Shown one piece after another: positions 734 through 23,497 of a DNA stretch of 23,497 nucleotides. Source of the stretch: a candidate division WOR-3 bacterium (GTDB lineage: Bacteria > Hydrothermota > Tepidihabitantia > Tepidihabitantales > Tepidihabitantaceae); NCBI GenBank assembly GCA_965648905.1, contig CBFGIT010000037.1:1-23497 (forward strand). The letters are read 5' to 3'. A model generated the notes under the pieces. The model was not told where the DNA came from and did no database searches. It saw nothing but the letters and a program-made list of their open reading frames with translations. Every line of letters starts with the position of its first letter. Positions within the stretch are counted from its first letter, which is position 1. Made by a program: the position numbers and the translations under genes.

Positions 734-3427
734 ATGTCGAGCGTGGACGAAGTGAGAGCTCGGGTTCGGGAGCTCGAGCGTGAGATGTCGCTCGCGGCCA
801 CGATCGCGGAGCGACTACGTCTGCTTAACGCGATGGGCGAGGAGCTGCTTAAGCGGAGTTATACCGAAGCACAACCGTGGTTTGAACAAGCCATCGCGCT
901 GGCTCGGAAGACGGGCTGCTACGAAGAGATGGCTCATGCGGCGAGGGTTATGGCCGAGGCGTGCTGTGATGTCCCGGAAATGGCACTGGCCGAGAAGTTC
1001 CTTGCCGTTCTCAAAGAGGCGGCCGACGCCTCAGGCACCCTGCGTCTCCGTGGTTCCTATCACTTTGTCAGCGGCTCGATTGCCATATCTCGGGGTGACT
1101 ACGAACAGGCGCGTCGGGAATACGATGAGTGTCGCCGGCTCTGGCAGGCCGATGGCTTCATCACAGGCGAGGCGTTCGTCTTGAACCAGCTCGGCAACAT
1201 CTGCGGCCAACAGGGTGACGCGGGCGGTGCCCTGGAGTGCTATCAAGATGTTCTGGCTCGAGCGAACGAACTGGGCGAGCGTGAGTTGCTGGCAACAGCC
1301 TGGAACAACGTCGGCTGGGCCTTAGTTCAACTCGGTCGATGGGAAGACGCCGTCGATTCATTCTACCGAGCGCTGGCGTTGAGTGAATCGGCTCCGGACA
1401 GCGCGCTGGTTCTCAATTCGCTGGGCGAGTTGTTCATCCGCCGCGACAAGCTGGACAAGGCAATTGACATGCTCCGCCGAGTGGTGGGCGAGTCGGGCTC
1501 GTCTGAGCACGTCCCGGCTCCAATGGTGCTCGACGCGTGCGTCAACCTCGGCCTGGCATACCAGCGTCAAGACAACGTTGCCGGCGCGGCTGCATGGTTT
1601 GAACGCGCTCTGGTGCTTGCCGACCGGAGCATGAACCACCACGACCGTGCTCGGGTACTCGCTCACATGGCGGCACTGGCCATCGCTCAGGGAGACGCAG
1701 CCCGGGCCAGCGAGCTTGCTGATGAGGCAGTGGCGCTGGCACACCGGGTCGGTGCCCGCCGGGATGAGAGCGCGGCACTGCGCATCCGGGGTCAGGCACA
1801 GGCCGCGCAGGGCAAGATCGCCGACGCCCTGGCCTCACTTGAGATGGCAATCGCCGCGGTGCAAGACGCCGAGGACGGATACGAAATGGCCATGGCCCGG
1901 TACCAGTATGGCCGTGTTCTCATCGAAGCCGACCGCCGAGAGGCAGGAGTCAGCCAGTTGAAGGCCGCGTCCCGGGTCTTCAGGAAGTTGTCGATCGTGC
2001 TTGAGGCCGAGGAGATCAACCGGCTGCTTTTTCGGCTCGAACTGCGCACGGACAACGACGTGGCTCTGCTCCAGGGCATCTCCCGACTTGTTCCACTCGG
2101 CCTTGAACCCAAAGTCATGGTTGACCAGACTCTGCGACTGATCTGTGAAGCGCTGGAGTTTGAGAGCGCGGCGGTGTTCTATCAAAATCAGCCAGTCTTC
2201 GTTCTTGGCACTCCTGACCTGGCCCACGCGATTTCGACCTTGGACGCCGGTCAAGACAGCACCCGCACACCAAAGAGCCTGAGTTGGCCGGTGAGCTACG
2301 GCCAGAACGTCGACGGTCGCATCTACCTCGAACGAAGTCGTCCTTCGAGAATCGAGCAGAGCCCGCTTGTGCTGGAAACGGTCGCTAATCTACTGGCGCT
2401 GCCCATCCAGCGCACTGCCGAGACCGCCATCAGGGTCGTGCAGGACCGGGTTGACCTTGCCGGCCTGCGGTTCAACGGCATAGTCGGTCACAGCCCGGCA
2501 ATGCTTGGTGTCCTTGCCCGGGTCTGCCACCTGGCCAGCACGGACATGAGTGTGCTTATCCAAGGCGAGACCGGAACCGGCAAGGAGCTTCTGGCCCGGG
2601 CTCTGCACGACTCCGGCCCACGTGTGGCGATGCCGTTCGTGCCGGTCAATTGCGCCGCAGTACCAGAGAACCTGCTTGAGGCCGAGTTCTTCGGCGTCGA
2701 ACGCGGTGCCGCTTCTGGTGTAGCATCACGACCGGGCAGGTTCGAGGTCGCGGGGGCTGGCACGGTTTTTCTCGACGAGGTTGGAGACATGAGTCCGGCC
2801 CTGCAGGCCAAACTGCTGCGTGTGCTCGACGACCGAACCGTGGTTCGGGTCGGCGGCCATACGCCAATCAAGGTCGAGGCCCGCGTCATCGCCGCGACCA
2901 ACCAGGACCTGAAGAAGAAGGTCGCCGAGGGTACGTTCCGCAGCGACCTGTACTACCGTCTCAACAGTGCTGAACTCTGCGTGCCGCCCTTGCGTCAGCG
3001 GTCCGAGGACATTGAGGAGCTTACCGGGCATATCATCGCGACGCTGAATCAGGAGTACCATCGCCAGGTACGAGGGGTCAGTCCCGAAGCGCTGCAGCGG
3101 CTTCGGACTTACCACTGGCCCGGCAACATCCGCGAGCTTCAACACGTACTGGAGAGGGCTGTTATTTTAGCCACGTCTGACATCCTGGAGGTTTCAGACC
3201 TGCCTTTGCCGGTCGCCGCGCCCAGCGCCGATCACCCACCGTCCTTTCGCGAGGTTCGCCGGCGCGCCCGGGCCGATGCCCGCGACGACACGGAGCGACT
3301 CGCGCTGCTGGACTGCCTCAAGCGGGCAGACGGAAACGTCACCAGGGCGGCCGAGCTTGCCGGTTACAGCCGCGCCCAGTTCTACCGGCTGATGCGCAAA
3401 TTCGGGATCAGCCGGCGGTTGGAGTAA
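734..3427 (+). CDS. TPR-repeat sigma54-interacting (bEBP-type) AAA+ transcriptional regulator with Fis-type HTH
   Basis: N-terminal TPR repeats (e.g. LNQLGNICGQQGDAGGALECYQ, WNNVGWALVQLGRWEDAVDSFYRAL) and a short GAF-like linker. Walker A GETGTGKE (2564-2587), VNCAA, Walker B FLDEVGDM, FRSDLYYRLN, WPGNIRELQHVLERA, and HTH GNVTRAAELAGYSRAQFYRLMRKFGI. Confidence 0.95.
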   Translation: MSSVDEVRARVRELEREMSLAATIAERLRLLNAMGEELLKRSYTEAQPWFEQAIALARKTGCYEEMAHAARVMAEACCDVPEMALAEKFLAVLKEAADASGTLRLRGSYHFVSGSIAISRGDYEQARREYDECRRLWQADGFITGEAFVLNQLGNICGQQGDAGGALECYQDVLARANELGERELLATAWNNVGWALVQLGRWEDAVDSFYRALALSESAPDSALVLNSLGELFIRRDKLDKAIDMLRRVVGESGSSEHVPAPMVLDACVNLGLAYQRQDNVAGAAAWFERALVLADRSMNHHDRARVLAHMAALAIAQGDAARASELADEAVALAHRVGARRDESAALRIRGQAQAAQGKIADALASLEMAIAAVQDAEDGYEMAMARYQYGRVLIEADRREAGVSQLKAASRVFRKLSIVLEAEEINRLLFRLELRTDNDVALLQGISRLVPLGLEPKVMVDQTLRLICEALEFESAAVFYQNQPVFVLGTPDLAHAISTLDAGQDSTRTPKSLSWPVSYGQNVDGRIYLERSRPSRIEQSPLVLETVANLLALPIQRTAETAIRVVQDRVDLAGLRFNGIVGHSPAMLGVLARVCHLASTDMSVLIQGETGTGKELLARALHDSGPRVAMPFVPVNCAAVPENLLEAEFFGVERGAASGVASRPGRFEVAGAGTVFLDEVGDMSPALQAKLLRVLDDRTVVRVGGHTPIKVEARVIAATNQDLKKKVAEGTFRSDLYYRLNSAELCVPPLRQRSEDIEELTGHIIATLNQEYHRQVRGVSPEALQRLRTYHWPGNIRELQHVLERAVILATSDILEVSDLPLPVAAPSADHPPSFREVRRRARADARDDTERLALLDCLKRADGNVTRAAELAGYSRAQFYRLMRKFGISRRLE

Positions 3428-3514: not shown

Positions 3515-3916
3515 GTGGGTTTCGGAGTGCGACACACTTGCGGAATCGGCCGTTATCAGACGCTTGCGGGCAAGCCGGGTGGTCCGGATGGTCTCTGGTG
3601 TCGTCTTCCCTGCCGGGCTGAGGGGTACTGCGGTGGTTTGGGCAAGGGGAGGCGCGGGCGGATGGGCAGGGGGGTCGGCACCGGTCTGGGCCCGGGTCTG
3701 GGACCCGCGAACGCATCGGGCCAGGGTTCTGGCCGCCGAACCCCCCGGGGCGGCGGCAGGCGCAGGGGTTGCCGAAAGGACTGGGGCAGGGGAAGGCGTA
3801 ACCGCTTCGCCTGGGGCTGCCCAATGGGTTTCGGCCGGGGTCGGGGCAGGGGGTTCGGAAAGGGGAACCGTCCCCCTTACCAGCCAGGGGATGGTCATAT
3901 GGTAGGACGAAGGTAG
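3515..3916 (+). CDS. possible Gly/Arg-rich low-complexity protein (may be a non-coding repeat)
   Basis: Open frame through the 12-nt repeat giving (G-x-G-R/K)n, e.g. GRGRRNRFAWGCPMGFGRGRGRGFGKG, loosely like DUF5320-type proteins. GTG start without a clear SD; several other frames are also open. Confidence 0.2.
   Translation: MGFGVRHTCGIGRYQTLAGKPGGPDGLWCRLPCRAEGYCGGLGKGRRGRMGRGVGTGLGPGLGPANASGQGSGRRTPRGGGRRRGCRKDWGRGRRNRFAWGCPMGFGRGRGRGFGKGNRPPYQPGDGHMVGRR
3635..3874 (+). repeat. degenerate G-rich 12-nt tandem repeat (~20 units, consensus ~GGNNNNGGCAGG)
   Basis: Units in 12-nt phase from 3635: ggtttgggcaag, gggaggcgcggg, cggatgggcagg, ggggtcggcacc, ggtctgggcccg, ggtctgggaccc ... gactggggcagg ... 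ggtttcggccgg, ggtcggggcagg, gggttcggaaag. Strong G skew on the + strand. Confidence 0.65.
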
Positions 3917-3981
3917 ACTGCAGAAGGCAGAATACAGATTGCAGAGTGCAGAATGGCAGAGGTGCAGAAAAGACGAAAGTA
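3909..3981 (+). repeat. degenerate heptamer tandem array (consensus GA[A/T/G]TGCA)
   Basis: gaaggta gactgca gaaggca gaataca gattgca gagtgca gaatggca gaggtgca gaaaagac gaaagta; decays further to ~4020. Confidence 0.8.
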
Positions 3982-16633: not shown

Positions 16634-16706
16634 TCCAGCGTAGCTCAACCGGTAGAGCATCCGGCTGTTAACCGGAGGGTCACAGGTTCGAGTCCTGTCG
16701 CTGGAG
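16634..16706 (+). tRNA. tRNA-Asn(GUU), CCA not encoded
   Basis: Acceptor TCCAGCG/CGCTGGA plus discriminator G; D arm GCTC/GAGC; anticodon stem TCCGG/CCGGA with loop CT-GTT-AA (anticodon 16667-69); T arm ACAGG-TTCGAGT-CCTGT. Followed by TGA rather than CCA. Confidence 0.97.
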
Positions 16707-21770: not shown

Positions 21771-22547
21771 ATGAACCGAATAATCCGACTCCTGCTGCTG
21801 GCCGTGGTCGGGTTCGCCCTGTTTGGCCGGGCGACCTGCGGCCGGACAAAGCCTGCGGCCCGGGGCATCACGCCGGTGCTCAAACTGACCATCAAAGACC
21901 ATGTCTACTATCACAACATGGGCATTACCTGGGACAGCGAACACTACTACACGGTCAACGGCGGCAACTCAGACTACTGCAACCTGAACAAGTACGACCG
22001 CAAGGGCAACCTGGTGGCGAGCTACGATGTCGGGATTGACGGCCGGGCAATCTTCTGGCATCCGGAAGACGAAGAACTGTTTGTCAAGGTTCACGGCACG
22101 AGCCTGTACTCGGTTGACCTTGAGGACGAGTATGCCGACGAGGCGACCGAAGACATCGCGACCGAGGACAACTCCTCGGTCGGTTTCTCGCCGGACGGCG
22201 AAAGGGTTTATGAACTCTCCGGCGGCACGGTTACGGTCCGGGACTTTGACTCAGGCGACGAACTGGCGAGCTTCGAACTCGCCGGCGCAGCGAGCGACGA
22301 AGACCAGGGCCGCGACAAGAGCATCGCGGTTTCGGACAAGTACATCTTTGCCTGGGAAGACGAAAACACCATCCGGGTCTACAACCTCGAGGGCGCGTAC
22401 CTTGCGCGGTTTGACCTGCCCCGGCCCGGGTTCGGCTTCTCTCTGTCATGGGCCAACGGCCTGCTCTGGATTGCCGAAGATGCGGACGGCAAGGATTCGG
22501 GCGCAGACGGGTACTGGTACGGGTATCAGTTGAAAGGACTCGAGTAG
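21771..22547 (+). CDS. secreted acidic hypothetical protein, probable beta-propeller
   Basis: GAGAGG RBS, 9 nt after the C25 stop. Signal peptide MNRIIRLLLLAVVGFALFG. Blade-like motifs GITWDSEHYYTV, KYDRKGNLVASY, VGFSPDGERVYEL, IRVYNLEGAYLARF, LSWANGLLWIA. Confidence 0.85.
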   Translation: MNRIIRLLLLAVVGFALFGRATCGRTKPAARGITPVLKLTIKDHVYYHNMGITWDSEHYYTVNGGNSDYCNLNKYDRKGNLVASYDVGIDGRAIFWHPEDEELFVKVHGTSLYSVDLEDEYADEATEDIATEDNSSVGFSPDGERVYELSGGTVTVRDFDSGDELASFELAGAASDEDQGRDKSIAVSDKYIFAWEDENTIRVYNLEGAYLARFDLPRPGFGFSLSWANGLLWIAEDADGKDSGADGYWYGYQLKGLE

Positions 22548-22572: not shown

Positions 22573-22605
22573 CAACCGGCAGGCGCGGGCCTGCCGGTTG
22601 CTTTC
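22573..22605. terminator. probable bidirectional terminator hairpin between convergent genes
   Basis: Perfect 12-bp stem CAACCGGCAGGC (22573-84) / GCCTGCCGGTTG (22589-600), loop GCGG. Followed by CTTTC on + and TATTG on -; both U tracts are weak. Confidence 0.65.
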
Positions 22606-22669: not shown

Positions 22670-22789
22670 TTATCCGCAGCACAGAACGTGATCGAGACAG
22701 CACACGTCAGGGCAGACATAGCACTGGCAGCAGACACTCTTCTGCTCCTGGCACTCACGCTGCTGCTTCTTCTCCTTGCGTCCTTTCAT
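22670..22789 (-). CDS. 39-aa peptide with 9 Cys (metallothionein-like or RiPP-precursor-like)
   Basis: Below the ORF-track size cutoff. ATG 22789-87 to TAA 22672-70: MKGRKEKKQQRECQEQKSVCCQCYVCPDVCCLDHVLCCG. Purine-rich RBS region GAAGAAAGAAGGTGAGAGCC directly upstream; terminator-like hairpin ~70 nt downstream. Confidence 0.75.
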   Translation of the reverse strand: MKGRKEKKQQRECQEQKSVCCQCYVCPDVCCLDHVLCCG

Positions 22790-22866
22790 GGCTCTCACCT
22801 TCTTTCTTCACCTGGTTAGACGCGCAGTCGTTGCGGCCAGATGCCGGCGACCTGGGCGCAGCGCGT

Positions 22867-22936
22867 GGACGCAGAGGTCGGAATGCAGAATGCAGATTGC
22901 AAATGCCAAAGCGCAGAATCGCGAACGGCGAAAAGC
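22867..22936 (+). repeat. degenerate heptamer tandem array (~10 units, consensus GAATGCA)
   Basis: ggacgca gaggtcg gaatgca gaatgca gattgca aatgcca aagcgca gaatcgc gaacggc gaaaagc; same family and orientation as 3909-3981. Confidence 0.8.
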
Positions 22937-22945
22937 GGTCAGCGG

Positions 22946-22976: not shown

Positions 22977-23206
22977 GCTGCTGCACGCCAGCCGGGCAAC
23001 GTGCTGACAATTCACCCGAAGGAGTCTTCGCAGTCCCGGGCCGGCTCAAGCGCCATCGTGCGGATATTGCGCGGGGTGCGGAGATTCTTCCAACCATATG
23101 CAACCGCGTAGTGCTACGCGGCGAAGACCCCCGCACCCCTTGTATCGCCGAAAAAAGACAAGCCCCGGGCCCGGCACATGCCGGAACACGGGGAACGGGC
23201 AGCAAC
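22977..23206. ncRNA. candidate ~230-nt rod-like structured RNA (strand unresolved)
   Basis: Nested helices by eye: 22977-84/23199-206, 23000-05/23185-90, 23006-09/23179-82, 23036-42/23168-74, 23043-48/23159-64, 23073-84/23128-39, 23086-90/23123-27, apical 23104-11/23114-21. About seven mismatches become G-U pairs on the minus strand. Confidence 0.4.
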
Positions 23207-23257
23207 GGTCGGAATACTCGCGGTCGGTCTGGTCAACCAAGTCCTTTGTTCAGAAGA

Positions 23258-23285
23258 AGAGTAGCACCATCGACGACATAGTCAA
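23258..23285 (-). promoter_or_regulatory. sigma70-like promoter pointing left (toward the rod RNA and Cys peptide)
   Basis: Minus strand TTGACT (23285-80), N16, TACTCT (23263-58). Confidence 0.5.
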
Positions 23286-23295
23286 GGCCGGCGTT

Positions 23296-23324
23296 TTGAC
23301 GAAAGAGCGCTGCTGTGGTATAAT
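23296..23324 (+). promoter_or_regulatory. strong near-consensus sigma70 promoter pointing right
   Basis: TTGACG (23296-301), N17, extended -10 TGg-TATAAT (23319-24); predicted +1 near 23331. Confidence 0.8.
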
Positions 23325-23353
23325 TATTACGCATATGGTTAGGAGAATCACAC

Positions 23354-23497
23354 ATGGGGCCTTGCCGCAGCCACCGCCGCTACCCACTTAGCACAATAGC
23401 ATTTGCCTGCACCGGCCAAGCCCGGTCGGTTCTGCTTTGCCGGCCCAGGGGGCCGGACAATGCTGGCCCCAAGGGCACACCGTTGCACCATCCTCAG
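23354..23497 (+). other. start of a structured transcript or possible ORF running off the window
   Basis: AGGAG (23341-45) then ATG 23354, open to the window end (MGPCRSHRRYPLSTIAFACTGQARSVLLCRPRGPDNAGPKGTPLHHPQ...). No recognisable family, and the region folds extensively, so it may be leader or ncRNA. Confidence 0.25.

Follow-up and report, generated by a model that had tools for sequence, protein, structure and literature searches.

Near one end of a contig from a candidate division WOR-3 bacterium lies a short open reading frame (ORF) that would code for a peptide of 39 residues, nine of them cysteines. Is it a gene, and what might such a peptide do? The window analyzed here is the whole contig (C37; 23,497 nt) of genome G000, an assembly of 3.0 Mb with 62% GC that is 99.6% complete. 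The features to which the text refers are as follows.

21771 to 22547, plus strand: convergent neighbor gene, listed for context; its 258-aa product is without a match in Pfam or NCBIfam
22573 to 22600, no strand assigned: perfect GC-rich hairpin of 12 bp that separates the peptide gene from its convergent neighbor
22670 to 22789, minus strand: coding sequence of the 39-aa Cys-rich peptide P0001, stop codon TAA, from ORF translation and the orthologue at L002:1501-1620
22793 to 22806, minus strand: purine-rich ribosome-binding block, 14 nt identical in the orthologue
22816 to 22821, minus strand: GTCTAA hexamer just 5′ of the Shine-Dalgarno (SD) block, kept in both genomes
23073 to 23497, plus strand: multicopy repeat with no part in the control of P0001, from repeat searches of G000 and G001

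A cysteine-rich ORF with a strong ribosome-binding site

Translation of the ORF gave the 39 residues, nine cysteines and Cys spacing reported in a first-pass annotation of the contig. Eight of the cysteines and one histidine fall within the last 20 residues, in a core with three CC pairs and the spacing CC-x-C-xx-C-xxx-CC-x5-CC. The N-terminal half is charged, predicted to be helical (residues 3 to 20), and contains Cys13. The gene is single-copy in G000. Direct inspection of P0001 revealed no hydrophobic stretch, in agreement with the earlier statement that it has no signal peptide, and the ribosome-binding site described as good is indeed present, as AGGTGA (22800-22795) spaced 5 nt from the ATG in a block identical in the orthologue.

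To put these properties in proportion, the ATG-to-stop ORFs of 30 to 50 aa in G000 were counted (n = 10,797, nested starts included). At least nine cysteines were found in two of them, and 88 had SD pairing as strong as that of P0001, scored with a generic anti-SD sequence; by the same measure, two ORFs, P0001 among them, combined an SD this strong with at least seven cysteines. The combination of Cys content and SD in P0001 is beyond chance. To call the peptide unannotated was too strong, as the exact protein is already present, as a one-member cluster, in an NCBI-derived predicted-protein collection, from which the orthologue is absent. A gene caller has thus detected it before.

The downstream hairpin of the first-pass annotation proved to be a perfect 12-bp stem located 70 to 97 nt downstream of the gene (z -3.96 versus shuffles). 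The stem is conserved at the orthologous locus, whose spacer has a z of -4.31. Its position points to a probable terminator common to P0001 and the 258-aa gene; the U tails are weak, and a terminator scan made no call there. The 5′ region of P0001 folds no better than shuffles (z 0.15 and -0.79 in the two genomes), no palindrome common to the two upstream regions was found, and Rfam yielded no match at gathering score near P0001, with four weak chance hits (E 0.17-2.3). The conserved GTCTAA hexamer is a possible promoter element. A sigma-70-like site at 22999-22971 (9/12) was not adopted as the P0001 promoter, the DNA there not being conserved in G001, and the conserved upstream bases did not fit the spacings of sigma-54 or RpoE promoters. 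No RNA run was listed as containing the locus, and among contigs from four runs the coding sequence was covered by nothing but 33 nt of a contig that is otherwise dissimilar; neither result argues for or against expression.

The cysteines are conserved in the sister genome

A search of 61 related genomes returned a clear match to P0001 (E 5e-7) in G001, the only other genome of the genus. The orthologue, P0002, has 39 aa, is 62% identical to P0001 and converges on the same 258-aa neighbor, so that the locus is syntenic. All nine cysteines of P0001 are kept in P0002 despite changes at 15 of 38 positions (P = 0.005, for one sequence pair), and four Cys codons differ silently. P0002 has two additional cysteines (11 in total) and has lost the residue corresponding to His34 of P0001, which argues that thiol number matters more than exact spacers. 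Identity in the N-terminal half amounts to 12 of 19 residues; outside the cysteines, 10 of 17 helix residues are kept (Met excluded) versus 4 of 12 in the core.

Substitutions between the two genes are biased toward synonymous changes (pS 0.75, pN 0.25), similar to the 258-aa neighbor gene (0.59/0.17). A Cys-conserving, synonymous-biased homologue in a related genome, for which the first-pass annotation had suggested to look, therefore exists in G001. In four other frames pS is about equal to pN; the fifth, with 0.54/0.28, is the stop-containing mirror frame. Judged from this one sequence pair, P0001 is under purifying selection with its cysteines conserved, and we regard it as almost certainly a real small gene. 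The opposing view, that the ORF is non-coding and arose by chance or as the shadow of another constrained feature, can appeal to the existence of a single orthologue only, but it is most improbable given that the skew of the P0001 frame has nothing comparable in four other frames, the fifth being the mirror frame, and that the 14-nt SD block, start, length and stop codon position (TAA versus TAG) are retained while the flanks align poorly.

The upstream repeat is not a conserved regulator

Control of the peptide by the structured region upstream, as first proposed, was not borne out, since this region is a multicopy repeat missing from the genome of the orthologue. Positions 23280-23497 form the left half of an approximately 435-bp non-coding, MITE-like element with inverted GTCAAGG/CCTTGAC ends, which occurs on eight G000 contigs (C37, C12 at 27875-28308, C44, C55, C42, C41, C7 and C19), three of them broken inside it; the adjoining segment 23073-23279 is common to C37 and C44. 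Together, 23073-23497 matches five places in G000 and none in G001, and 68 nt of it were matched in one of the other 42 family genomes. The left part of the element was not found in G001, and Rfam has no match to 23073-23497. As the orthologue does without the repeat, it is not the conserved regulator of the gene.

The element has features of its own. It carries an 11/12 sigma-70 site at 23296-23324, after which come AGGAG and an ATG (23354). A 19-nt inverted pair (23083-23101/23331-23349; 89% complementary) is arranged in the same way on C44; its upstream arm lies antisense to the SD and the 5′ end predicted for a transcript made from the element promoter, and the pair could provide antisense or fold-back control. 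Degenerate GCAGAAT heptamer tracts are present at 22871-22937 and about 3916-3957. Tandem tracts of this type number 107 genome-wide and often adjoin element ends.

The neighborhood does not indicate a function

In G001 the peptide gene is preceded by a thiolase gene, a ChsH2-type OB-fold/zinc-ribbon gene and a GC-rich hairpin, in that order, and followed by the convergent 258-aa gene and then a gene of the C25 peptidase type. The thiolase and OB-fold genes of G000 are found on C12, and after them comes a copy, in compatible orientation, of the repeat element with which C37 ends. The G000 order was probably as in G001 before an insertion and then a rearrangement or mis-join. The link between the peptide and the OB-fold gene is positional, because a hairpin separates the two and other genera have the OB-fold gene but not the peptide. 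On C37, a tRNA gene lies at 16634-16706 (plus strand), between an EF-G-like gene and the C25 peptidase gene.

The P0001 gene is monocistronic, with no downstream same-strand partner. A role as a cysteine-sensing attenuator leader was excluded because no same-strand gene lies 3′ of the peptide gene in either genome. The absence of a modifying enzyme from the window, reported at first pass, extends to the surroundings of the gene in both genomes, and the search for metal or RiPP genes next to the homologue that was proposed at the same time came back empty: no enzyme, exporter, metal regulator or transporter is linked to P0001 or P0002. ArsR, ArsD, ArsA and Fur matches are on contigs other than those of the peptide (the G000 ars genes being on C31 and C53), and profile searches detected the CsoR family in neither genome (controls positive in 6 of 14).

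The family appears restricted to one genus

With a profile built from the two sequences, matches at E 0.1 were obtained in 13 of the 272 phylum genomes, of which G000 and G001 alone were below 0.01; at class level, 5 of 132 genomes matched. Those weak WOR-3 matches that were inspected, a set that excludes loci L339 and L342, were ferredoxin-type proteins or off-frame and were rejected as members. A word-indexed search of 5.8 billion proteins, using the 42-aa ORF and the two-sequence profile, recovered P0001 itself only, as did HMMER against 1.84 billion representative proteins; none of four candidates in the protein search was a longer form of P0001. ESM Atlas gave no usable match to either peptide, and P0001 has no match in Pfam, NCBIfam, PHROGs or PDB sequences.

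Pattern searches at the DNA and contig levels gave the same picture. An 8-Cys-plus-Asp DNA pattern run on one genome per species had 56 hits, one of which (L310) is the G001 peptide, with no other member. Peptide patterns found no member among 321 hits in genome contigs, and among the matches listed for metagenome contigs (593 pattern hits) the one that passed was an off-frame chance match. The matches listed by Cys-pattern scans were mostly antisense or low-complexity tracts. In the order, 24 of 66 genomes contain a match to the 258-aa protein, and at its 20 homologous loci beyond the genus the peptide is missing, the DNA downstream (228-900 nt) encoding at most 6 Cys per 25 residues. Downstream of 22 of 23 OB-fold gene orthologues there is no Cys-rich ORF, the exception being G001 itself. 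Contigs at least 99% alike to the neighbor genes of P0001 came from one hot-spring metagenome run (X1), which may have a connection with the sample of origin.

As profile, neighbor-gene and large-collection searches yielded no third member, the peptide family is, as far as searched, restricted to one genus. The openly accessible literature that was searched, including PMC10612145, PMC12301328, PMC12542636 and PMC8326336, yielded no description of the peptide.

A metallothionein-like peptide is the favored reading

We consider it fairly probable that P0001 is a cytoplasmic metallothionein-like peptide, in which a charged helix at the N terminus precedes a metal-thiolate core rich in CC pairs. 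The earlier idea of a new metallothionein-like family stands insofar as no described family matches and this reading is the best one, while the metal binding that it implies is an inference. With no export signal, P0001 would stay in the reducing cytoplasm with its thiols reduced. The CC/CxC/CxxC core, probably together with Cys13, would fold into a metal-thiolate cluster with a few thiophilic ions; nine or 11 thiols may hold about three to four Zn or Cd ions, or more Cu(I), and the CC pairs could take As(III) or Hg(II). Animal metallothionein domains bind three metals with 9 Cys and four with 11 Cys. The charged helix may confer solubility and possibly offer a docking surface.

The defining features of metallothioneins are a mass of 3.5-14 kDa and the motifs C-X-C, C-X-X-C and C-C (PMC13578184). 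Low mass and Cys-rich CC, CxC and CxxC motifs, a trait of the functional superfamily, are found in both P0001 and P0002, and the trait of selected cysteines is found as well (9/9 kept), in two sequences. The lack of a linked metal regulator argues for metal buffering or storage, the role that we propose for P0001, rather than an induced resistance operon. PMC7387436 describes Pseudomonas metallothionein operons without metal-responsive regulators, and a metallothionein induced in stationary phase and dispensable for resistance. Against the metallothionein-like reading, the helix is conserved beyond the needs of a passive sink, which also fits a leader or docking role. The reading is further weakened because a microprotein with Cys motifs may fail to bind the metal expected of it: of 14 such microproteins, 5 were zinc-free (PMC11241148).

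An AlphaFold model built from the two sequences without metal (mean pLDDT 69) shows residues 3-20 as a helix and the core as mostly irregular. Foldseek returned no hits with this metal-free, pLDDT-69 model, and the best structure comparison with it by VIA, again from two sequences, had a Z of 2.5 and an rmsd of 2.9 over 33 aligned residues.

Two alternatives assign more to the helix, and we hold each to be unlikely, though worth weighing. In the first, P0001 would be a metal-stabilized regulatory microprotein, with one or two ions, structural or sensed, in its Cys core and a conserved K/E/Q helix that binds a protein or nucleic acid partner. The modeled helix (3-15/17-20) has the best local confidence (pLDDT 75 for residues 11-20), the N-terminal half is well kept at the identity given above, and the residues that vary tend toward one side of the helix (p = 0.08). 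The latter test is not significant, however; a single finger needs fewer than 9 to 11 cysteines, no partner is linked, and the model derives from two sequences. In the second, with a similarly low probability, P0001 would be the founding member of a separate, recently arisen bacterial class of metal-thiolate microproteins, its conserved charged helix contributing Cys13 to a vicinal-CC cluster and docking on a partner, with metal being delivered or sensed and not just absorbed. If true, this would mean that a protein of the metallothionein type originated independently in one genus of WOR-3.

The other proposal made at first pass, an orphan RiPP precursor, fared less well. A leader-plus-core precursor modified in trans by an unlinked enzyme would account for the conserved charged N-terminal half and the Cys-rich, spacer-variable C-terminal half, and 5 of the 18 radical SAM proteins could be assigned to no named family: four have no NCBIfam match at 1e-25, and one is B12-binding and below all cut-offs. 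One of the four (364 aa, on G000 contig C6) has a twitch-like tail by eye. Thioether-forming enzymes typically have SPASM/twitch and RRE domains (PMC8326336). The other 13 of 18, though, have non-RiPP families as best match, and the defining maturases were not found in the two near-complete genomes (99.6% and 99% complete). YcaO cyclodehydratase, SPASM (PF13186) and PqqD/RRE (PF05402) were detected in neither, in searches whose controls were positive, including the WOR-3 genome G155 for all three. MNIO (DUF692/MbnB) was not found in the three genomes searched (control positive in 1 of 14), and neither was the C39 peptidase (PF03412; controls positive in 7 of 14) that marks the exporters of glycocins and double-glycine bacteriocins. 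LanC/LanM was found in neither of the two genomes, with silent controls as well, and P0001 and P0002 lack the GG motif of a double-glycine leader. Because the maturases were not found and neither an enzyme nor an exporter adjoins the gene in either genome, we judge this explanation improbable.

Slightly less probable still is a thiol redox buffer, or a carrier of sulfane sulfur or Fe-S clusters, in an anaerobe: the genome encodes the HydE and HydG maturases, many WOR-3 bacteria are anaerobic (PMC12542636) and metallothioneins also scavenge reactive species (PMC7387436), but P0001 has no ferredoxin-like spacing or family match and is unlinked to Fe-S or sulfur genes.

Implications of a metallothionein-like P0001

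Few types of bacterial metallothionein have been characterized (SmtA/BmtA, Pseudomonas metallothionein and MymT). If the metallothionein-like reading is correct, a CC-rich protein of 39 residues unrelated to these in sequence would bring in a new cluster architecture, and its existence would suggest that proteins of this kind evolve repeatedly and escape the libraries of known families. The natural pair with 9 and 11 cysteines is a ready-made comparison that can be tested cheaply by synthesis. Its significance is limited by the two genomes of an uncultured genus and the uninformative neighbors, and in vitro metal binding by a Cys-rich peptide would be no surprise.

Other small Cys-rich peptides

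The searches brought up further peptides. The locus L194:1740-1862 (plus strand) of G001 contig C26 encodes a 40-aa peptide with eight cysteines and a 3-His-free leader; it overlaps an ArsR-family gene at that gene's end, is followed downstream by genes for ABC transporters, has no Pfam or NCBIfam match, was not found in G000 and is unrelated to P0001. It would be a better candidate for a regulated metallothionein than P0001. In two Longimicrobiaceae genomes, conserved SD-led peptides of 28-30 aa with 10-13 Cys (L279:2492-2578, minus strand; L302 near 2480-2570, plus strand) adjoin a gene that we take to be rpsT. Their Cys spacing is the same, a property for which the search pattern selected, and they have no significant similarity to P0001. 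Kinship of P0001 with the Longimicrobium peptide L279 or the ArsR-linked G001 peptide was rejected as not significant (E 0.72-7.5).

At L149:1477-1605 (minus strand) of G155 contig C263, a precursor of 42 aa that has two runs of Cys and a GG site, presumably similar to streptolysin-S-type precursors, is followed by a SagC-like cyclodehydratase partner and YcaO, forming a LAP/TOMM cluster in this other WOR-3 genome. The minus strand of G000 contig C1 has a stand-alone 49-aa ORF with a very strong SD and CxxCxGxG repeats, which we assume to be a DnaJ-type zinc finger. Loci L289, L303 and L294 of clostridial genomes encode SD-led Cys/Asp/Glu-rich proteins of 67-104 aa with an N-terminal hydrophobic segment.

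Comparison with known systems

The precursors of ranthipeptides (SCIFF), sactipeptides, LAP/TOMM and MNIO products resemble P0001 in their length of about 40 aa, charged N-terminal half and Cys-rich C-terminal half. Unlike them, P0001 is stand-alone and has no NCBIfam precursor match, and neither genome gave a match to SPASM, RRE, YcaO, MNIO or C39. CC pairs occur in ArsD-type proteins, and P0001 likewise has vicinal Cys pairs, including a C-terminal one, whereas no ArsR or ars gene is linked to it. Metallothioneins of the cyanobacterial type have a divergently oriented SmtB/ArsR repressor, which P0001 lacks; the ArsR matches are on other contigs in both genomes.

MymT, a mycobacterial Cu(I) metallothionein, was likewise a non-annotated ORF, and it is similar to P0001 in size (4.9 versus about 4.5 kDa), lineage restriction and the ease with which annotation misses it (PMC7558416). 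P0001 gave no sequence match to it through NCBIfam and PDB sequences, libraries that may lack MymT, and a CsoR-family regulator was not found in G000 or G001.

BmtA/SmtA and Pseudomonas metallothioneins (PF02069) are, like P0001, small and Cys-rich and have no signal peptide. Pfam, including PF02069 with its zinc-finger Cys/His pattern, gave no match for P0001 (E 0.1) or P0002 (E 0.01), and PF02069 was detected in neither genome (control positive in 1 of 14, Synechococcus). PF02069 proteins have about 60 aa and 16% Cys (PMC13578184), versus 39 aa and 23-28% Cys in the pair described here; P0001 further differs in its three CC pairs, its non-conserved His and its long charged N-terminal helix. 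By these sequence comparisons, P0001 is not a BmtA/SmtA member. The Pseudomonas proteins, like P0001, have no metal regulator beside the gene, and the Cys9His cluster of PflQ2 metallothionein has nine cysteines, as does P0001 (PMC7387436).
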